From a virus (taxonomy: Duplodnaviria > Heunggongvirae > Uroviricota > Caudoviricetes), in IMG/VR virus record IMGVR_UViG_2537562019_000014: DNA of 19,722 nucleotides; one strand, 5' to 3'. The notes beneath the pieces are model-generated. The model was not told the DNA's origin and ran no database searches. It saw only the letters and a program-made list of their open reading frames with translations. How positions within the stretch are numbered: the first letter of the stretch is position 1; every line of letters starts with the position of its first letter. Below are positions 1 to 19,722 of the stretch, one piece after another. A program made the position numbers and the translations under genes.

Positions 1-37
1 ATTATACGCGCGTATAATGGGGAATTATGTGCTGATT
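1..37. repeat. Partial telRL (protelomerase target palindrome telO plus right flank), truncated by the window start
   Basis: Bases 1-20 ATTATACGCGCGTATAATGG are a perfect palindrome matching the recalled N15 telO core minus its first 2 bp; the following GGAATTATGTGCTGAT resembles the N15 telRL right arm; lies directly upstream of a TelN-like gene. Confidence 0.7.
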
Positions 38-200
38 TTCAGAACAAAGTCAAGGAACAAATTTTAACGTTCTGATATTGTGTTTTTATTTATTATCCGT
101 TATTGTGTTCTGTTAGTTTGTGCCTAAGTTAACGCGTTATTAGTTATCTTATTCTCAAATTGTGTTACGATAATCCGAGCGGATAATCAGGAGAGGAAAG

Positions 201-2102
201 ATGAGCAAAGTAAAAATCGGTGAATTAATAAACTCACTTGTTAGCGATGTTGAGTCAATAGATAACTCTGACCGTCCTCAAGGGGAGAAAACAAAAAAAA
301 TAAAGGCTGTTGCATTAAAATTTAAAAATGCATTATTTAATGACAAGCGAAAGTTTAGGGGGAAAGGATTAGAAAAAAGAATTACAGCCAACACATTCAA
401 TGCCTATATGAGCAGGGCCAGAAAACGGTTTGATGATAAACTTCATCATAGCTTTGAAAAAAATATACATCGCCTATCTGAAAAGTATCCTTTATATAAT
501 GAGGAGCTATTGTCATGGCTTTCTCTACCTGCTGCCGATATTCGCCAGAGAATGTCAGCTTTACAGGCAAAATTAAAATTAATTCTCCCTCTATCAGAAG
601 ATTTATCTAATATCAGAATTGGCGATAACAAAAGTCATAATAAGTTATTGAAATTATCAAATAAATATAAAGAGTGGCAATTCGCCATTTCTGATTTAAC
701 TAGCGATAACTGGAAAGATAAGCGCGATTATTTATATAAATTACTACAGCAAGGATCTGCCTTACTTGAGGAGTTGAATCAGCTAAAAGTTAACCATGAG
801 ATTCTCTATCATCTTCAACTAAGCCCTGCCGAACGTGCATCTATCCAGCAACGATGGGCGGACGTTCTGCACAATAAGAAACGTAACGTGGTGGTCATTG
901 ATTACCCTAAATATATGCAAGCTATTTACGATATTATAAATAGCCCTGCTACATTAAATAATCTAAACACTCGTTCAGGTATGGCTCCTTTGGCATTTGC
1001 ACTTGCTGCATTGTCAGGAAGACGAATGATTGAGATTATGTATCAAGGTACATTTACTGTTTCTGGTAAGTATACCGTTGATTTTTTAGGCCAAGCTAAA
1101 AAAAGAACTTCTGATGATATAACCAGAAAAATATATACATTATGCGAAGCAAAAACATTTGTTTATTTAATAAATGTACTTCGCTCATGCCCAGCAGCAT
1201 CTGATTTTGATGATGTCGTTAAAGGTTATGGAGATAACGACACACGCTCTGAAAACGGACGTATTAATGCCATATTAGCAAAGGCTTTTAACCCGTGGGT
1301 TAAATCATTTTTCAAAGATGACCGCCGTGTTTATAAAGATAGTCGTGCTATTTATGCCCGTATTGCGTATGAAATGTTTTTCCGCGTAGATCCTCGTTGG
1401 AAAAACGTAGATGAAGATGTTTTCTTTATGGAAATTTTAGGCCATGACGATGAAAACACTCAATTACACTATAAGCAATTCAAGCTGGCCAACTTCTCAA
1501 AGACATGGAGGCCAAATACTGGAAACGAAAATACCAGGCTGGAAGCATTGCAGCAGCTTGATGACGAAATGCCTGGATTCGCCAGAGGAGATGCCGGGGT
1601 TCGTCTGCATAACACAGTTAAGCAGCTGGTAGAGCAGGACCCCTCTATAAAAATCACGAACAGCACTCTAAGAGCGTTCAAATTTAGCCCAACAATGATT
1701 AGTCGATACCTGGAATTTGCTGCTGATGCTCTGGGGCAATTTGTTGGCGAAAACGGACAATGGCAACTGAAAATAGATACTCCAGAAATCGTTATGCCTG
1801 ACGAAGAAGAACTGGAAGCAATACCTGAACTGGCGGATGAATTGTCAGAGGATGACGATCTGGATGACGACGAAATTGAGATAGAGGAAGAGGAAGAGGA
1901 AGAGGAAGAGAGCGTAGAAGAACAGCAACCGCCTGCACCTTCTTCGCCTGTATCTAAGCCGGTATTTAAGCCGGTGAGAAATATTGGTGATGGCTCATAC
2001 GTTGTTGAGTTTCATTATAATGGCCAGAATTATGCGTGGTCCGGCAGTGCAAACAGCCCCATGTCAGCAATGCAGTTAGCATGGCTGACATATTTCGGTT
2101 AA
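201..2102 (+). CDS. telN: Protelomerase (telomere resolvase) TelN
   Basis: 633-aa ORF with AGGAGAGG RBS; length and N-terminal sequence (MSKVKIGELIN...) closely resemble N15 TelN (631 aa) as recalled; acidic C-terminal linker (run of E encoded by GAGGAA repeats); adjacent to the telO palindrome. Confidence 0.85.
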   Translation: MSKVKIGELINSLVSDVESIDNSDRPQGEKTKKIKAVALKFKNALFNDKRKFRGKGLEKRITANTFNAYMSRARKRFDDKLHHSFEKNIHRLSEKYPLYNEELLSWLSLPAADIRQRMSALQAKLKLILPLSEDLSNIRIGDNKSHNKLLKLSNKYKEWQFAISDLTSDNWKDKRDYLYKLLQQGSALLEELNQLKVNHEILYHLQLSPAERASIQQRWADVLHNKKRNVVVIDYPKYMQAIYDIINSPATLNNLNTRSGMAPLAFALAALSGRRMIEIMYQGTFTVSGKYTVDFLGQAKKRTSDDITRKIYTLCEAKTFVYLINVLRSCPAASDFDDVVKGYGDNDTRSENGRINAILAKAFNPWVKSFFKDDRRVYKDSRAIYARIAYEMFFRVDPRWKNVDEDVFFMEILGHDDENTQLHYKQFKLANFSKTWRPNTGNENTRLEALQQLDDEMPGFARGDAGVRLHNTVKQLVEQDPSIKITNSTLRAFKFSPTMISRYLEFAADALGQFVGENGQWQLKIDTPEIVMPDEEELEAIPELADELSEDDDLDDDEIEIEEEEEEEEESVEEQQPPAPSSPVSKPVFKPVRNIGDGSYVVEFHYNGQNYAWSGSANSPMSAMQLAWLTYFG

Positions 2103-2850: not shown

Positions 2851-3147
2851 GGTATGCACTCCGTTTAATTGGTCGTGCTACCACCAGAGTTCTCACGCTC
2901 TTGAATGGTGGTAGCCCAAGCGGGGGTGAGAATACCGGCAAACGAAGAAACCGGCCTGACCGAAGTCAGCCCCGCCTGAGCCACCATAAATCGGATATGC
3001 GCAGGTATATACACACAAAAAAACACGCTGGCGCGTGTTGTGCGCTTCGTTTATCCGGGTTCTCACGCCCGGCTGCGGAATTTGCCGCAGCGGAGTAACT
3101 TTACCGTCAAAACGACGCACACGTCAATAATTTGCAAAGACATTTTA

Positions 3148-3941: not shown

Positions 3942-4267
3942 TTAACCCCACTCACCATCAGCAAACAAAGCGTTATACTCTGACAATGGTAGACGGTTGC
4001 CCTCGATGTAGAGATTCAGTTCATACTTCGTCTCCGGGTTTTCCTTGTCGGCTCGTTCCCAACGCTCAGCAGCCTCACGCGCCAATAATTCCACTGCTTT
4101 CAGATAATCCTCCGTACGGAACCAGCCAAAGATAAGGCCACGATCTGTTACAGCCCAGGCAACCTTTTTTCTTCCTCCTGGATAGCCTTAATGCGTCGAT
4201 CGCATTCATCCCGGCAAAACTGCAGCTGACGGTAATCAAGTTTGTCCAAAAATGCAGTAGTAGACAT
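3942..4267 (-). pseudogene. Hypothetical ~108-aa gene interrupted by a frameshift at an A6 tract (indel, slippage or sequencing error)
   Basis: ATG at 4267 with GGAG RBS; frame stops at 4148-4150 after 39 codons; the -1 frame is open from the A6 tract (T6 on plus, 4165-4170) to TAA at 3942-3944; one extra A would fuse both parts. Confidence 0.45.
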
Positions 4268-4271
4268 ATTT

Positions 4272-4463
4272 TTACTCCCCGTTCACCGAAAAATCACGAT
4301 AGAAACGTTTCCACATACGATAAGTCTGCGCGAGTTGTTCACCACGAAACATCGCCTTCCTGGCCTTCATGTTTTCCTTGTGAGACTTTCGATCTATGAA
4401 CCAAAACCATTGCTGGAACACACAAAGCAAGAGACACAAAGATAATATCCACTGATTACCCAT
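4272..4463 (-). CDS. Small membrane protein (63 aa) translationally coupled to repA
   Basis: ATG at 4463 overlaps the last codons of repA (TATGGGTAA); hydrophobic N-terminus WILSLCLLLCVFQQWFWFI followed by a basic tail; stop lies 4 nt before the next start. Confidence 0.45.
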   Translation of the reverse strand: MGNQWILSLCLLLCVFQQWFWFIDRKSHKENMKARKAMFRGEQLAQTYRMWKRFYRDFSVNGE

Positions 4464-7400
4464 AGAAAGCGCCCTGCTCTTCGTAGCTGCATGGGCTATT
4501 CCCGGTAATGTATTCACGTAACCGCCGCAGTTCATTGCTGGATAAGTGATCCATGAACTCTGTGAGGTACAGAGATGCAAACGTCATAGCTATGCTGGCT
4601 GATGACCATGATGACATAGTGGCCAGCTCCTCACCGGAAAGCGCACTCATCGCCCAGGACTCAGGTACAACCACTGGCAACACAGCCAAAGCCTCAGAAA
4701 TTACTGAATGAGGGGCGTTTTGAACCTGCTCGTTTGTGGATCGCGTTTTATCATCCATATATATATTGAGATCCAAATCGCGATCCATTTCGATGGCGGT
4801 CTTCTCGGCTTTACGCGTTTTCAGGGTTAGGCCATCTTTCTGACGCTGAGCAAGAATATCCAGCATAAATGCCGCTGATTCAGGCTCAACAAAACGCAAG
4901 GTTGGACGCTTATCGCCGTCTCTGCCGCGACGTTTACCTGTTTTAAGGCCAAGAGAGTCGCAAATGTTTTTAAACAACGCTTCCGGCACTTTAGGCTTCC
5001 CTTTTGGCGTCATAAAACCACCAATGTGCAGAACGTTATTCAACAGGTCACGGCGTTCGGCTGTCATGAGGTTATCTCGAGCAAATTTGAGACGCTCCTG
5101 AGTCGCCTCGCCGGTCATAGTCTCAGGGTTGATACCGCAGTCGATAAAGTACTGCCGGAGAGTTGCTGATTTAAGCGCATAGAAACCGCGCGCCCCGACT
5201 TCAACAGTAGGAGTAGCTTTTACCTTGTGATCGATTATTCCAGGGAATTTAGTTTTAAAGACATCATCAGCCTGCTCGCGAGTCATCGCGGTCACTACAA
5301 AATATTGCCACTGTCCCGCCTGACGGTATGCGTAGGTAAAATTGATGGCTGCTTCTTCCCGGTCGTAACGACGAGCTGTTACCTCATCTAAAAGCATTGT
5401 TTCATAGCGGCGAACTTTGTCTCGAGCACCATCGAAATAGAATTTCAGCGTGCCTTCTTCAACCGGTAGTTTCAGTTCGTTTTCAATATCCCAGCGGACA
5501 AGTTTTGCCTGTTCTTCAAGCGTCAGCGCGCGTTTTTTTAGCAGTTCTTCACGCTCTGATTCTTGTGGAGTTTCTGTATTGAGATGCAGATCCAGTGTCT
5601 GTTCCCACACAATATCCCGCGCTTCTTTACGCAGCTCTTTACCGATATCATTCGCAGCATAATCGGTGGCCAGCGGCGATACCTTATAACCGTCGCTGTG
5701 CATGATGCAGATCATGTTGCTGGCGTAGTCGTTACGCGCAGTCGCTTCAATAGCGGCTGCTTTAATTTTCATCCTGGTAAAGTCGGTATTGGCCACCCCC
5801 ATTGATATACGGTCGCCATCGAAAACGACATCCGTCAGTTCACCGTTCATACCTGCGGTAGCAAGCAATGCCTGGGCGAATGCTCGTTCTATTTTTTGCG
5901 GGTCAGTTTCACGTTTTGCACGAGCTTTATCAAAGCCGATAATAAATTCTTTTGCTGTACGGTCGCGGCGTAGCATTTGCACTGCGTCGCTGGGTACAAC
6001 TTCACCACAGAACATGCCGAAATGACGGTCAAAATGTTTTTGCTCAATCGACACGCCGGATGAAATAGACGGGCTATAAATCAGGCCGTCGTATTTTTTG
6101 ACCATCTTTTTCGGTTGATTGGTAAATGCTTCAACTTCTGGCTCTGGTTTGTTTTTCTGGTTTACACACAGAAATTTCTTACCAGGAAAATGCATTCTCA
6201 GGGTGGCTGTCACATCTTCTGCAAAGGTGGAGCTGTCGGTGGCCAACATGATTTTTTCGCCATCCGATACAGCTTTCACCACCTCGGTCATGATGCGATC
6301 TTTTTCTGTATAAAAAACCCGGATTGGCTCACCTGTTTCGCGGTTGCGAACATCAACAGGTAATTCAATTACGTGGATCTGCAGCCATGCCGGTAAACCT
6401 AGTTCTTCACGGCGTTTCATAGCCAGTTCAGCCAGGTCAACCAGCAGATCATTCGCATCAGCATCCACCATGATTGGGTGTTGTTCTGTTCTGGCCAGCG
6501 CGTCAATTAGCGTATTGAATACAGCCACCGGGTTTTCCATAGCCCGACCGGAAAGAACGGCACGTAGCCCTTGTGTGGCCTCGTCAAAGCCAAAATAGTC
6601 GTGCTGGCGCATCAACGGTTGCCAGCAGTTTTTAACAATCGAGTTTATGCAGATGGTCAGTTTACTGGCGTATGGAGCCATTTCCTGATAGCCAGGATCC
6701 TGATAGTGCAGGATATCGGCTTTTACACCTTTTCCTTCTGTCATCATTTCCCACAGGCCGCCAATAAGGGAGACACGGTGAGCAACAGAGATACCACGTT
6801 CTGAGCTATGCATTAACGGTCGTAACAATCCAGTAGATTTGCCGGAACCCATACCAGCACGGACGATGACTATCCCCTGTAGTGATTGCACGTACTTCAG
6901 GACATCATCGGTCATTACCGAAGTTTCAAAACGCTTATAGGTGATATGTTGAGGGCGTTTATTGGGATCAGTTATGCGTTCGCTGAAAGAGCGCGGAGCC
7001 TGGGCAATACGGCACTTTTTATTCAGGCGACGGGCAATGTGGTCTTTTACCGTAGCGCGATAGATATTTTCCAGTCCCATTTCACGCAGAACGATGCAGA
7101 ACATGTTAAATAAATCTGACGGACTGTTAGGAACCGGACAGGTTAGCATGCCAATATCCACCGCTCTCAGCAGCTCTTTGGCAAAAGTACGACGGTTATC
7201 CCGCTTAATTGTCTTCAGGCGGTTGAGCGTCAGAGATAGCAAATCAGTACCAGTTTTCAGGCGGTTTGCTGTTGCAAATAGTTGACGTGCTGTTTCACGA
7301 AGTCCACGTAGTTTGTGCAGGTCGTTGAAGTCACTGCACTCCATTTGCGGATCGTCTTCAAAAGTTGGATAGACGCAGCGGACATCGTTGAATTTCGATA

Positions 7401-8451
7401 AGATTTCATAGCCAGTCCGCAGGCCGGTATTCCCTTTTCCTTCTGTGGCAGATTTCCGGTCATTATCCAGTGCGCAGGTGATTTTTGCCGCCGGGTACAT
7501 GTTTACCAGTTGTTCCACAACATGAACCATGTTGTTAGCGGATACAGCGACAACCACAGCGTCAAAGCGTTTATCTTTTTTCGTGGCAAGCCAGATGGAT
7601 GCACCAGTAGCAAAACCTTCTGTAACAGCGATGTTTTGCGCCCCTTTCAGCTCACCGATAACAAAGCAGGCACCGACGAAATCGCCGCTGGTTACTGCGC
7701 TGGTCTGGTATTTTCCACCTTGTTTGTCGATTCGCTGCCAACCCACAATACGACCATCGTAACGACCGTCCAGGTGAGCCAGAGGGATAGCCATATACGT
7801 GGTTGGCCCCCTGCTCCATTTTGCGCTGTCGTGACTGGTCACGCGACGCACATCACACGAATTAAAAACGTCACGAATACCTTTTTTAATCGCATATGGC
7901 CATGAGCCGTCTTCTGCAGGAGCATGTTCCCACGCGCTGTGAAATGCCAGCCATCCCAGCAAACGTTCATGGTCAATTTGGTTGTTTTTCAGGTCATTAA
8001 TTCGTTTTTGTTCTTCACGGCGACGACGTGCTTCGGCCTGACGTTCTATTCTTGCCCGTTCTTCTTCCGGTTGTGCGACCACGGTCGCATTATTCCGTTG
8101 TTGCTCACGGCGATATTCAGAAAACAGGAAGGAGAAACCGCTCCATGAGCCAGCATCGCTGCCTTTATGGACGAAGTTAATGAACGGGTAATCAATCCCT
8201 TTGCTGTGTTCCAGCCGGGAGTAAATTTCTACGCGTCCTTTGAGGCTCTTCTCGAGAGCTTCTGGAGATGTTTTATTGTATGAAGAGTAACGCTCAACAC
8301 CCCCGCGAGGGTTGAGTTGGATGTTGTCGGAACAGGCAGGCCAGTTGATACCAGCCATCTGTGCCAGCTCGGTTAGTTCATCCCGTGCTGCTTCAATTAG
8401 CGAGAACGGATCGCTGCCAAAGCGATCCGCATAGAAATCGTTTAATGTCAT
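4456..8451 (-). CDS. repA: Replication protein RepA, multidomain primase-helicase
   Basis: 1331-aa ORF; Walker A motif GMGSGKST; TOPRIM-like primase region; size and position match N15 RepA (about 1324 aa) located between telN and cB. Confidence 0.85.
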   Translation of the reverse strand: MTLNDFYADRFGSDPFSLIEAARDELTELAQMAGINWPACSDNIQLNPRGGVERYSSYNKTSPEALEKSLKGRVEIYSRLEHSKGIDYPFINFVHKGSDAGSWSGFSFLFSEYRREQQRNNATVVAQPEEERARIERQAEARRRREEQKRINDLKNNQIDHERLLGWLAFHSAWEHAPAEDGSWPYAIKKGIRDVFNSCDVRRVTSHDSAKWSRGPTTYMAIPLAHLDGRYDGRIVGWQRIDKQGGKYQTSAVTSGDFVGACFVIGELKGAQNIAVTEGFATGASIWLATKKDKRFDAVVVAVSANNMVHVVEQLVNMYPAAKITCALDNDRKSATEGKGNTGLRTGYEILSKFNDVRCVYPTFEDDPQMECSDFNDLHKLRGLRETARQLFATANRLKTGTDLLSLTLNRLKTIKRDNRRTFAKELLRAVDIGMLTCPVPNSPSDLFNMFCIVLREMGLENIYRATVKDHIARRLNKKCRIAQAPRSFSERITDPNKRPQHITYKRFETSVMTDDVLKYVQSLQGIVIVRAGMGSGKSTGLLRPLMHSSERGISVAHRVSLIGGLWEMMTEGKGVKADILHYQDPGYQEMAPYASKLTICINSIVKNCWQPLMRQHDYFGFDEATQGLRAVLSGRAMENPVAVFNTLIDALARTEQHPIMVDADANDLLVDLAELAMKRREELGLPAWLQIHVIELPVDVRNRETGEPIRVFYTEKDRIMTEVVKAVSDGEKIMLATDSSTFAEDVTATLRMHFPGKKFLCVNQKNKPEPEVEAFTNQPKKMVKKYDGLIYSPSISSGVSIEQKHFDRHFGMFCGEVVPSDAVQMLRRDRTAKEFIIGFDKARAKRETDPQKIERAFAQALLATAGMNGELTDVVFDGDRISMGVANTDFTRMKIKAAAIEATARNDYASNMICIMHSDGYKVSPLATDYAANDIGKELRKEARDIVWEQTLDLHLNTETPQESEREELLKKRALTLEEQAKLVRWDIENELKLPVEEGTLKFYFDGARDKVRRYETMLLDEVTARRYDREEAAINFTYAYRQAGQWQYFVVTAMTREQADDVFKTKFPGIIDHKVKATPTVEVGARGFYALKSATLRQYFIDCGINPETMTGEATQERLKFARDNLMTAERRDLLNNVLHIGGFMTPKGKPKVPEALFKNICDSLGLKTGKRRGRDGDKRPTLRFVEPESAAFMLDILAQRQKDGLTLKTRKAEKTAIEMDRDLDLNIYMDDKTRSTNEQVQNAPHSVISEALAVLPVVVPESWAMSALSGEELATMSSWSSASIAMTFASLYLTEFMDHLSSNELRRLREYITGNSPCSYEEQGAFYG
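4737..4787. other. Candidate replication origin inside the 3' end of repA
   Basis: 9-bp inverted repeat TGGATCGCG / CGCGATCCA flanking a (TA)5 AT-rich core; three GATC sites within 50 bp; N15 ori is known to map within the 3' part of repA. Confidence 0.3.
8072..8089. repeat. SopB-type centromere-like palindrome, copy 1 (inside repA coding sequence)
   Basis: TGTGCGACCACGGTCGCA, 7-bp inverted arms with AC centre; closely resembles the F sopC SopB-binding repeat TGGGACCACGGTCCCA; one of four copies in the window. Confidence 0.55.
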
Positions 8452-16515: not shown

Positions 16516-17012
16516 TGCAGTCATCATTACGCAAAGCTGTCGCAACTGCTATTGGTGGCGGGGCTATTGCCATAGCATCTGTGCTCATCTCTGGTCCGAG
16601 CGGCAACGATGGTCTGGAAGGTGTGAAATATAACCCCTACAAAGACATCGTTGGTGTATGGACTGTATGTTACGGGCATACAGGAAAAGACATTATGCTC
16701 GGTAAAACGTATACCGAAGCAGAATGCAAAGCTCTCCTGAATAAAGACCTTGCTACTGTCGCCATACAAATTAACCCGTACATCAAAGTCGATATACCGG
16801 AAACAACGCGCGGTGCTCTTTACTCGTTCGTTTACAACGTGGGTGCAGGCAATTTCAGAACATCGACACTTCTTCGCAAAATCAACCAGGGCGATATCAA
16901 AGGTGCATGTGATCAACTACGTCGCTGGACATATGCTGGCGGTAAGCAATGGAAAGGCCTGATGACTCGTCGTGAGATTGAGCGTGAAGTCTGTTTGTGG
17001 GGGCAACAATGA
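16512..17012 (+). CDS. SAR endolysin (GH24 lysozyme, phage-21 R-like)
   Basis: N-terminal Gly/Ala-rich signal-anchor-release segment [20 protein letters not shown], then a lysozyme domain; start overlaps the holin stop. Confidence 0.85.
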
Positions 17013-17476
17013 GCAGAGTAACCGCAATTATCTCCGCTCTGGTTATCTGCATCATCGTCTGCCTGTCGTGGGCGGTCAATCATTACCGTGATAACGCCAT
17101 CGTCTACAAAGAACAGCGAGATAAAAAAGTCAGTGAGCTGAAGCAGGCGACCGCCACCATTACTGACATGCAGCAGCGCCAGCGTTCTGCTGATGCACTC
17201 GATGCTAAATACACGAAGGAGTTAGCTTATGCGAAAGCTGAAAATGATGCTCTTCGGCGCAAGCTTGATAATGGTGGTCGGGTGTTCGTCAAAGGAAAAT
17301 GCCCTGTGCCATCCTCAGCCGAAACCTCCAGCGCCTCCGGCATGGGCAATGATGCCACCGTCGAACTCTCTCCAGTTGCTGGACGAAACGTTCTCGGTAT
17401 CCGGGACGGAATTATCCGCGACCAAACAGCACTGAGAACGCTTCAGGAATACATCGGGACGCAATGCCTTCGATGA
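17009..17476 (+). CDS. Rz: Rz-like inner-membrane spanin
   Basis: ATG overlaps the endolysin stop (ATGA); N-terminal TM segment then coiled-coil-like region; contains an embedded +1-frame lipoprotein gene. Confidence 0.75.
17229..17435 (+). CDS. Rz1: Rz1-like outer-membrane lipoprotein spanin, embedded in Rz
   Basis: Entirely within Rz in another frame; lipobox VVGC; proline-rich mature region [11 protein letters not shown], similar to lambda Rz1. Confidence 0.7.
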
Positions 17477-17649
17477 TAGCGATAATTTTACTCATCATCC
17501 TTCACATCTGGCTCTGTAGACAGGATGGTGATCACTTCTGGAGTGAATCCAGATTAAACATCTCATTGCTGATGCTTGATATTGAGCATCTTGCGCGCGG
17601 TAAGGGGCTGCGTTGAGATAAGAGCCAGTCATTACAAATACCAGGATTT

Positions 17650-17674
17650 AGCCTCGCATTCGCGGGGCTTTTTA
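17650..17674 (+). terminator. Intrinsic terminator downstream of the lysis cassette
   Basis: AGCCTCGC-ATTC-GCGGGGCT stem with one G-U pair, followed by TTTTTA. Confidence 0.5.
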
Positions 17675-17885
17675 TATCTGAATTTCACAGCGCATCTCAC
17701 GCGCATATTAACGAGAGCCTTTCAGTAAGCGAGCCTGAGAAATGCCGTGAACGGGATTATTTCACACTCAGAGAGCGAATCGTCACAGTGACGAAACAGG
17801 TTGGATATTTGCAGGAGTACATCAGGACGCAATGCCTGAATTAATCCATCTGCATCAAACACGAACTCAATTTGTTGGATAGTGA

Positions 17886-18197
17886 ATGAAAATTTATATT
17901 GCCGGGCCAATGACGGGATATGAGAACTCTAATCGTGACGCCTTTAATAAAGAGGCTGATCGTTTGTCACGACATGGTCACTCTGTCTTGAATCCAGCCT
18001 CTTTGCCTAATGGTCTGACACAACGTGAATACATGGATATTTGCTTTGCAATGCTCCGTTGTGCTGATGCTATTTTGATGCTTCCTGGCTGGAAAGCGTC
18101 TGCTGGAGCAACTGCTGAGTATCATTACGCATACAAGATGGAGATGCCGGTATTCACTACGTTGAATTACCCGCCAGCTTGTTCCTCTGTAGCATAA
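17886..18197 (+). CDS. Hypothetical protein (103 aa), nucleoside 2-deoxyribosyltransferase-like (DUF4406-type) N-terminal signature
   Basis: N-terminus MKIYIAGPMTG, recalled as characteristic of that phage-associated family. Confidence 0.45.
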   Translation: MKIYIAGPMTGYENSNRDAFNKEADRLSRHGHSVLNPASLPNGLTQREYMDICFAMLRCADAILMLPGWKASAGATAEYHYAYKMEMPVFTTLNYPPACSSVA

Positions 18198-18216
18198 AAA
18201 TCTCTTTGTTTCTCGT

Positions 18217-18234
18217 GTGCGACCGTGGTCGCAC
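18217..18234. repeat. SopB-type centromere-like palindrome, copy 4 (centre GT, inverted orientation)
   Basis: GTGCGACC-GT-GGTCGCAC, 20 nt after the stop of the preceding gene. Confidence 0.55.
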
Positions 18235-18262
18235 GCATTTCTTTTATTGCTTTGAGGTAGAT

Positions 18263-18472
18263 ATGTCAGTAGCTGTTTTCGAGGCACTCAATGCACGTAT
18301 TAACCAACTTGAAAGTAAGGTGAAGGAATACGAGCAGCGACAGGCTGAGGCAGATGAGAAGACTCAGAACGAACTTTTCCTGGAGTTTCTTGCCATCGTT
18401 CACGAACTGATGCCGTTAGTTAATCAGGCGCTGATGACAGGACTGAAGGATGGAGATTTACACAGTAGGTAA
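18263..18472 (+). CDS. Hypothetical small helical protein (69 aa)
   Basis: ATG 18263 with GAGG RBS; the ORF track begins earlier at 18179 without RBS support. Confidence 0.5.
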   Translation: MSVAVFEALNARINQLESKVKEYEQRQAEADEKTQNELFLEFLAIVHELMPLVNQALMTGLKDGDLHSR

Positions 18473-18489
18473 ACCTGATCTTCTGTCTT

Positions 18490-18700
18490 ACGGGTCCTTT
18501 CCGGTGATCCGGAGCGTTACGGGGCGGAAGGCGCGCGGGTTTTCGCTATTTATGAAAATTTTCCGGTTTAAGGCGTTTCCGTTCTTCTTCTCCGTAACTT
18601 CATGTTTTTATTTAAAACACCCCCTGAAAAGAAAGGAAACGACAGATGCTGAAAACGGGCTTTTTGGCCTTTGTCGTTTCCTTTCTCTGTTTTTGTCCGT
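18490..18700. other. Lambda-type cos region (cosQ/cosN/cosB); cosN 12-mer at 18522-18533
   Basis: Near-identical to recalled lambda genome termini: ...TTACGGGTCCTTTCCGGTGATCC...GTTACG | GGGCGGAAGGCG | CGCGGGTTTTCGCTATTTATGAAAATTTTCCGG...; R-site-like CGTTTCCTTTCT upstream of Nu1. Confidence 0.7.
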
Positions 18701-18710
18701 GGAATGAATA

Positions 18711-19256
18711 ATGGAAGTCAACAAAAAGCAGCTGGCTGATATTTTCGGTGCGAGTATCCGTACCATTCAGAACTGGCAGGAGCAGGGAATGCCCGTTTTA
18801 CGAGGCGGTGGCAAGGGTAATGAGGTGCTTTATGATTCTGCCGCCGTCATAAAATGGTATGCCGAAAGGGATGCTGAAATTGAGAACGAAAAGCTGCGCC
18901 GGGAGGTTGAAGAACTGCGGCTGGCCAGCGAGGCAGATCTTCACCCCGGAACACTTGAATTTGAGCGCCATCGCCTGACTCGTGCTCAGGCGACGGCGCA
19001 GGAACTGAAAAATGCCAAAGAATCGGCTGAAGTGGTGGAAACCGCATTCTGTACTTTCGTGCTGTCGCGTATAGCAAGGGAAATATCCAGTATTCTCGAC
19101 GGTATTCCTCTGTCGGTGCAGCGACGTTTTCCTGAGCTGGATAACCGGCATATTGATTTTCTGAAACGGGATATTATCAAAGCCATGAACAAAGCAGCCG
19201 CGCTGGATGAACTGATACCGGGGTTGCTGAGTGAATATATCGAACAGTCAGGTTGA
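18711..19256 (+). CDS. nu1: Terminase small subunit (lambda Nu1-like)
   Basis: 181-aa protein nearly identical to recalled lambda Nu1 (MEVNKKQLADIFGASIRTIQNWQEQGMPV...). Confidence 0.9.
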   Translation: MEVNKKQLADIFGASIRTIQNWQEQGMPVLRGGGKGNEVLYDSAAVIKWYAERDAEIENEKLRREVEELRLASEADLHPGTLEFERHRLTRAQATAQELKNAKESAEVVETAFCTFVLSRIAREISSILDGIPLSVQRRFPELDNRHIDFLKRDIIKAMNKAAALDELIPGLLSEYIEQSG

Positions 19257-19722
19257 CAGGCTGCGGCATTTTGTCCGCGCCGGGCTTCGTGCCCTGTTCA
19301 GGCCGGAGCCACAGACCGCCGTTGAATGGGCGGATGCTAATTACTATCTCCCGAAAGAATCCGCATACCAGGAAGGGCGCTGGGAAACACTGCCCTTTCA
19401 GCGGGCCATCATGAATGCGATGGGCAGCGACTACATCCGTGAGGTGAATGTGGTGAAGTCTGCCCGTGTCGGTTATTCCAAAATGCTGCTGGGTGTTTAT
19501 GCCTACTTCATAGAGCATAAGCAACGCAACACACTTATCTGGTTGCCGACGGATGGTGATGCCGAGAACTTCATGAAAACCCACGTTGAGCCGACCATAC
19601 GTGATATTCCGTCGCTGCTGGCGCTGGCCCCGTGGTATGGCAAAAAGCACCGGGATAACACGCTCACCATGAAGCGTTTCACCAATGGGCGTGGCTTCTG
19701 GTGCCTGGGGGGTAAAGCGGCA
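19231..19722 (+). CDS. A: Terminase large subunit (lambda gpA-like), 5' partial, runs off the window end
   Basis: GTG start at 19231 overlapping the nu1 3' end; own translation MNISNSQVDRLRHFVRAGL...AVEWADANYYLPKESAYQEGRWETLPFQ matches the lambda gpA N-terminus; absent from the ORF track because no stop falls inside the window. Confidence 0.9.
   Translation, partial: MNISNSQVDRLRHFVRAGLRALFRPEPQTAVEWADANYYLPKESAYQEGRWETLPFQRAIMNAMGSDYIREVNVVKSARVGYSKMLLGVYAYFIEHKQRNTLIWLPTDGDAENFMKTHVEPTIRDIPSLLALAPWYGKKHRDNTLTMKRFTNGRGFWCLGGKAA

Follow-up and report, generated by a model that had tools for sequence, protein, structure and literature searches.

A probable half telomere-resolution site beside telN at the start of an N15-like Escherichia phage-plasmid sequence

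Introduction

Hairpin telomeres of the N15 type and the protelomerase TelN have been understood since about 2000. Tel of Yersinia phage PY54, ResT of Borrelia and TelA of Agrobacterium are likewise tyrosine-recombinase-like enzymes that resolve a palindromic junction into two hairpins, and of these ResT and TelA are only distantly related and act on target sequences that are unrelated.

The window analysed here, by which we mean the whole stretch of 19,722 nucleotides in IMG/VR record IMGVR_UViG_2537562019_000014, begins with a short palindrome located upstream of a telN gene. This arrangement raises two questions, namely whether the first bases belong to a protelomerase target site and whether the window starts there at a telomere or derives from a molecule in which the site is internal. 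The answer that we prefer, and to which we assign a probability of about 85%, is that positions 1-36 comprise one half of the site at which telomeres are resolved in an N15-like Escherichia phage-plasmid, together with nine bases past the centre of that site, and that the window starts at the hairpin end adjoining telN.

Results

The first 36 positions and the protelomerase target site

Three overlapping features describe the left edge of the window:

Positions 1 to 9, no strand assigned: bases past the palindrome centre, the perfect complement of bases 10-18.
Positions 1 to 20, no strand assigned: telO core, 20 of the 22 bp of N15 telO, with the predicted hairpin turn and resolution centre between 9 and 10 (N15 identity; unique in the window).
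Positions 10 to 36, plus strand: telN-proximal 27-nt arm GCGTATAATGGGGAATTATGTGCTGAT of the protelomerase target site (conserved in N15, phiKO2 and MStein).

The window opens with ATTATACGCGCGTATAATGG (positions 1-20), which equals bases 3-22 of the N15 sequence CCATTATACGCGCGTATAATGG at 20 of 20 positions. The latter is a perfect 22-bp palindrome at the centre of the 56-bp inverted repeat annotated in N15 (NC_001901), and the N15 annotation places the prophage-formation cut at the centre of that repeat. Within the window, bases 1-18 form a perfect palindrome whose symmetry centre lies between 9 and 10. This 18-mer is single-copy in the 19.7 kb, even when up to three mismatches are permitted (chance expectation 0.01). 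Beyond the centre, positions 10-36 align free of gaps with the telN-side arm of N15, phiKO2 and Enterobacter phage MStein-2023a, and most columns are invariant.

A reading made from the sequence alone had placed both halves of telO in the first 20 bases and had described the palindrome as missing only 2 bp. The first statement stands. The second holds solely when the 22-bp telO of N15 is the reference: of the central telO palindrome that contains TACGCGCGTA, 20 of 22 bases are in the window and identical, and the remaining two lie beyond its edge. The full functional site, however, has 27-nt arms and spans 54-56 bp, and 18 of the 27 bases of the other arm are absent from the window. The same reading identified a telRL-like right arm. 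That name is correct in phage-genome order, in which the telN-side end is the right half of telRL; the N15 plasmid convention, where the left arm is the arm with ori/repA and hence telN (PMC2847241), makes it telL, and the PhiR46_1 record labels its telN-proximal end 'telL site'. The overall identification of the site, as telO plus an arm adjoining telN, is correct.

Short palindromes are common, but a chance match or an unrelated operator is refuted by the N15 telO identity, the uniqueness of the palindrome in the window with three mismatches allowed, and the conserved arm next to telN, and we give such an explanation practically no credence.

The adjoining telN gene

The gene to the right of the site encodes the enzyme expected to act on it:

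Positions 201 to 2102, plus strand: telN, protelomerase (telomere resolvase), 633 aa, nucleophile Tyr424 (Pfam, 2V6E and N15 TelN).

All four protelomerase domains score far above their Pfam gathering cut-offs of 27-28 bits: TelK_N at 140.6, the muzzle at 170.9, the ResT-TelK catalytic domain at 88.7 and the stirrup at 162.1 bits. The protein matches the TelK structure 2V6E with E = 2.4e-295 and shares 77% identity with N15 TelN; in the alignments Tyr424 falls opposite Tyr425 of both N15 TelN and TelK. A Y425F mutant of N15 TelN is catalytically dead (PMC12624138). An identical TelN protein is encoded in 232 blocks of the assembly collection, chiefly on contigs of 10-50 kb. The C-terminal part is variable and includes, at window 1884-1910 (residues 562-570), a poly-glutamate run coded by GAG and GAA; it has 9 Glu here and 3 to 17 among close relatives, which explains most of the TelN size range of 627-641 aa.

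The leader between the site and telN

The interval between the arm and telN carries a set of short boxes, one relative of which lies in the arm itself:

Positions 24 to 31, plus strand: ATTATGTG box within the arm (ATTRTGTK match).
Positions 37 to 200, plus strand: AT-rich leader resembling the N15 tos region (GC content and conserved boxes).
Positions 41 to 49 and 54 to 62, plus strand: GAACA boxes in the leader (sequence).
Positions 77 to 84, 102 to 109 and 159 to 166, plus strand: ATTGTGTT boxes (motif scan).

An AT-rich region with short repeats in front of telN had been recognized from the sequence alone, and this is borne out by positions 37-200, which contain the three ATTGTGTT boxes. 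The leader has a GC content of 32.3%, compared with 45.4% for the whole window, and falls in the lowest 2.4% of 164-nt windows. Four of the six matches to ATTRTGTK in the whole window lie inside 166 nt, all on the plus strand (Poisson P of about 4e-8), and an ATTRTGT core is common to the leader boxes and the arm. The related pattern TTGTGTTMY gives 2 matches over the whole window when 0.77 are expected; because this count is not significant, the leader signal is the clustering of ATTRTGTK and not TTGTGTTMY.

Box positions in the leader are kept in N15 and phiKO2, and on the sop side of relative L004 GAACAY boxes are found in mirror orientation. The 56-bp core of N15 is described as having 'additional repeats in the flanking DNA' (PMC12624138), and a primer used for the 0.4-kb N15 telRL region has the conserved GTGTTACGATA box at its end (PMC2847241). 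Judged by sequence, the leader boxes correspond to these additional repeats. We infer that the ATTGTGTT and GAACA boxes are probably accessory TelN sites, and they may also regulate telN. A promoter and terminator scan of positions 1-2400 returned 8 promoter-like sites, with 5.9 expected, and none on the plus strand in 1-200, a yield no higher than chance. Directly upstream of the telN ribosome-binding site, at 174-185, there is also a short inverted repeat (ATCCG-AG-CGGAT) with a GATAATC direct repeat flanking it. It is kept in the lineage of the window, is absent from N15 and phiKO2, and could serve as an operator or in translational control.

Gene order and prophage permutation

To the right of telN the window carries, in order, a C4-type antisense RNA region, repA, a cI-like repressor, Q, exonuclease, methylase, holin, endolysin, Rz, Nu1 and terminase A. 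The elements that bear on the form of the molecule are:

Positions 4456 to 8451, minus strand: repA, N15-type primase/helicase linear-plasmid replication protein (Toprim and Herpes_ori_bp matches).
Positions 18522 to 18533, plus strand: joined cos, cosN-like GGGCGGAAGGCG, upstream of Nu1 and between Rz and Nu1.
Positions 18711 to 19256: Nu1.
From position 19231, running off the window: N-terminus of lambda-type terminase A.

In relatives, the repA product is annotated as 'plasmid replication protein, CyRepA1 family' or as 'primase'. The joined virion ends of N15 align with window 18488-18562. As cos is joined and internal and the tel site is at the edge, the window has the plasmid-prophage permutation; it is in linear-plasmid prophage order, not virion order. 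The window ORFs scanned included no integrase, and a scan for tRNA genes gave no match. The sopAB genes lie outside the window and in relatives are at the other telomere. The late region (16522-19722) and lambda-like phages share about 93% identity. Lambda cosN (GGGCGGCGACCT), searched for in the window with up to two mismatches, gave no match; the cosN-like GGGCGGAAGGCG is unlike both this sequence and the N15 equivalent GGGCGGCGTCCG, and the DNA on its right is lambda-like by eye.

Three Rfam matches above gathering score occupy the minus strand between telN and repA:

Positions 2904 to 2991, minus strand: C4 antisense RNA.
Positions 3018 to 3091, minus strand: isrK.
Positions 3052 to 3104, minus strand: c4-a1b1 target.

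This RNA cluster (2904-3104) looks like a secondary-immunity module of the P1/N15 type, which controls an antirepressor.

The other arm and variation between arms

The second arm is outside the window, and its equivalent is present in a near-identical relative, L018 (GCA_050759235.1), which over 5093 nt differs from the window by a single 1-nt gap, without any mismatch (99.98% identity). L018 runs leftward through a genuine left arm into sopA and sopB; the sopA-side arm reads ...AACGGAACATAATTCCCC. Modelled on this relative, the complete site of the window is probably CAACGGAACATAATTCCCCATTATACGC joined at the centre to GCGTATAATGGGGAATTATGTGCTGATT.

Every independent relative of the lineage with clean sequence has a site that is symmetric for at least 21 nt. 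Left arms are of two types: in one the symmetry extends over 27 nt, and in the other the sequence departs from the right arm at positions 22-26. In L004 the telN-side arm and the genuine sop-side arm together make a perfect 54-bp palindrome. The L018 type is perfect to 21 nt and then diverges at positions 22-26; between the sop-side and telN-side arms there are 4-5 differences within positions 22-27, and the inner 21 bp remain symmetric. Whether they came from hairpin read-through onto the opposite strand or from the inner end of the other arm, window positions 1-9 would read identically; because the relatives are symmetric on each side for 21 nt or more, these bases have no discriminating power.

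Position 13 from the centre (window position 22 is +13) was compared in the arms of L004, L006, L017, L018 and L024-L030. It is G, A or T among strains and is usually symmetric between arms, and contigs with G and with T at this position encode identical TelN. Constant covariation of +13 and -13 held in the first five independent pairs and was rejected when OY754439 and the two ends of YDC107 failed to follow it. Homogenization of the inner telomere between ends by recombination or telomere exchange, with TelN needing the outer arm on one side only, would be one account of these patterns, and a doubtful one, given the asymmetry of position 13 in OY754439 and between the ends of YDC107.

How contigs of relatives end at the site

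If the molecule ends in a hairpin, contigs of its relatives should stop close to the palindrome centre or continue past it as their own mirror image. A query with window 1-2200 matches 18 complete E. coli genomes and 32 plasmid records; the latter are mostly from Escherichia, and also from Shigella, Enterobacter and Citrobacter. PhiR46_1 and YDC107_1 are about 98% identical to the window over this region.

One plasmid record, NZ_JBRAXZ010000005, has its first base exactly at the palindrome centre. CP088746 begins 5 nt to the right of the centre, a Shigella record about 10 nt to the right, and two contigs with identical TelN (L022 and L023) begin short of it, 10-13 nt to the right. Three others with identical TelN (L021, L020 and L019) extend 23, 38 and 79 nt beyond the centre as their own mirror. 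Taken together, contigs with identical TelN end from -13 to +79 nt relative to one centre, and the overhangs are mirrors: at position -22, for example, L021 has the mirror base C, compared with A in the true left arm of L018. The nine bases to the left of the centre in the window are consistent with this scatter.

Longer mirrors also occur. L005 and L016 are exact mirrors about the centre over 1759 of 1759 and 2809 of 2809 bp, respectively, and the telN side of YDC107_1 (CP025712) is a 99.9% mirror over 3011 bp. On the sop side of YDC107 the order is tail fibre, sopB, sopA, site, sopA, sopB, tail fibre, with 99.8% identity over 4010 bp. The mirror structure was verified in L001, L005, L016 and L031. 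An assembler may run on past a hairpin and into the opposite strand; this is a recognized signature, and reads of this kind serve as evidence for covalently closed ends (PMC12460055; PMC13293297). Among contigs with identical TelN, all the outcomes that assembly of a hairpin end would be expected to give are seen: a stop short of the centre, a short mirror beyond it, a kilobase-scale mirror and a join to the sopAB end. Since YDC107 is mirrored on both its telN and its sop side, both prophage ends in this close relative appear, from their assembled sequence, to behave as hairpins.

The sop-side mirror of YDC107 lies inside a 'complete' chromosome record (L031; NZ_CP025707.1, 12284-20319), spans at least 8 kb and is centred after L031:4009; it looks like a hairpin read-through contig that was misplaced in the chromosome. 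L019 (GCA_037911005.1, JAWJKF010000023.1) carries at 4168-5172, in the variable region that separates the antirepressor genes from repA, a gene with a Colicin_M domain and a YebF-like gene, which may be bacteriocin cargo comparable to the 'telocins' reportedly found in Klebsiella telomere phages.

Contig end or internal site

The most serious alternative is that the site is internal in the parent molecule, whether as virion or replicative circular DNA, as a graph joined through the palindrome, or as a record rotated to the site, and that the left arm was lost by cutting. The same phage does also assemble with an internal site: the site is joined to a genuine left arm followed by sopA and sopB in L004, L006, L017 and L018, and the order sopBA, site, telN is found in L018, L017, L004 and many 'circular' records of about 46 kb. 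PhiR46_1 is moreover a curated record that was deliberately begun at the first base of telO. A random window edge would, however, fall inside a 22-bp site with a chance of only about 0.1%, and many draft contigs of this phage do stop no more than a few tens of bases from the centre. Exact-pattern scans of the genome_contigs, metagenome_contigs and viral_contigs sets found the close relatives L004 and L005 and no contig starting at window position 1; a look-up of the exact TelN in the assembly collection returned L018 and likewise no contig with that start. We consider an internal site unlikely, and it would alter the description of the contig only, as the element would still have the telomere site of a linear prophage.

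It is far less probable that the window comes from a circular plasmid or an integrated prophage that retains telN and a relic tel site. Most public relatives are labelled 'circular', but these labels sit on records that start at the site or are mirrored around it, and they look like assembler defaults. The window ORFs scanned also include no integrase, telN is intact, with its protein unchanged in 232 blocks, and the kilobase mirrors at both ends of YDC107 need hairpins as their explanation.

The window is very probably a contig, and its start is most probably a real contig end at the telomere, because a random edge in the site is so improbable and because 19.7 kb fits the commonest contig-size class. 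A start at the hairpin end is favoured by that same chance and also by the joined cos, the lack of an integrase together with an N15-type repA, and the mirrored ends of relatives. The sequence-only reading had left open whether the contig begins at the hairpin of a linear prophage, was assembled through it, or carries telRL internally as in the virion form; prophage order and mirrored contig ends favour a start at the hairpin or slightly past it and make the internal form less likely. Neither of the two observations that it had set against a telomere, upstream sequence lacking the complementary left arm or a circular replicon with an integrase, applies to the window, in which no integrase was found.

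Discussion

A model for the telomere cycle

Work published on phiKO2 TelK and N15 TelN supplies a model into which the window can be placed. After infection the genome would circularize at cos. [quoted passage not shown] The catalytic tyrosine (Tyr424 here) would make staggered cuts around the centre, and the self-complementary ends would fold back and be rejoined to give a hairpin-ended linear plasmid. The protelomerases of N15, PY54 and phiKO2 are described as acting, once the genome has circularized at cos, by such staggered cuts in a palindrome, fold-back and rejoining, the product being a linear plasmid circularly permuted by about 50% relative to the virion (PMC10612081). By homology, and from records of relatives that start exactly there, the hairpin turn would lie between window positions 9 and 10.

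Replication driven by RepA would proceed around the hairpin and produce a junction that consists of the reverse complement of the arm followed by the arm, which TelN would resolve again; TelN is reported to convert the junction sites of a circular dimer replication intermediate into hairpin ends (PMC12624138). Reads that pass around the hairpin would show the same inverted-repeat junction, as the mirror-imaged assemblies of relatives about the centre do. TelN remains on its product in N15 and protects the hairpin from SbcCD (PMC12624138), and in the phage of the window it probably also stays on the end and shields it. Covalent closure at the end of the window itself is likewise what the sequence leads us to predict.

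Comparison with known systems

The closest characterized system is N15 telRL/tos (NC_001901, 24775-24830) with TelN (gene 29). The two have in common the 22-bp telO core, the 27-nt arm layout, the leader boxes, the site located about 190 nt upstream of telN, a TelN with an aligned catalytic tyrosine, and the order telN, antirepressor region, repA, cI-like repressor and Q. The arms differ at a few positions, with GGGGAATTATG in the window and GGACTATTGTG in N15. The perfect palindrome is 42-54 bp in the lineage of the window, whereas in N15 it is 22 bp within a 56-bp imperfect repeat. The DNA of the site and telN is only about 73% identical to N15. The late genes of the window are, at about 93%, lambda-like; like the arm substitutions and the longer palindrome, they are a minor departure from N15.

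PhiR46_1 (PV340565), YDC107_1 (CP025712) and about 30 plasmid records from Escherichia and Shigella belong to the same lineage, with 96-99.5% DNA identity and the same site, leader and telN. PhiR46_1 has tel sites annotated at both record ends, and YDC107_1 is an uncorrected hairpin read-through assembly. Both have A at +13 from the centre, where the window has G, and the accessory genes between telN and repA are unlike those of the window. Klebsiella phage phiKO2, from another host genus, has the same central core in its telRL, and its TelK (2V6E) aligns over residues 1-536, but its outer arm and leader have diverged from the window. The pal site of Yersinia phage PY54 has the central TACGCGCGTA in common (PMC3540006), and its DNA similarity to the window is weak, partial and confined to telN. 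On in silico evidence the window belongs with the telomere phages of the N15 group: the defining features that can be tested in this way are present, with the second arm lying beyond the window.

Implications for annotation

The finding is correct and already known, and it adds no new biology; an earlier survey covers phage-plasmids of this N15-like type, with exactly this mosaic, from Escherichia and Shigella (bioRxiv 10.1101/2025.09.12.675607). Its value is for annotation. All 11 of the plasmid records of this lineage that we fetched are labelled 'circular', including some beginning at the telomere centre. Among other records, several of 62-91 kb carry the query region twice (NZ_CP014491 at 62.5 kb and CP088430 at 91.5 kb are examples), which suggests that they are uncorrected inverted duplications. 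For annotators, the concern is that public entries for this replicon are in many cases labelled circular, assembled as over-long mirrors or wrongly placed. A contig that starts with (CC)ATTATACGCGCGTATAATGG beside telN marks a physical hairpin end, and such a contig should be handled as linear.
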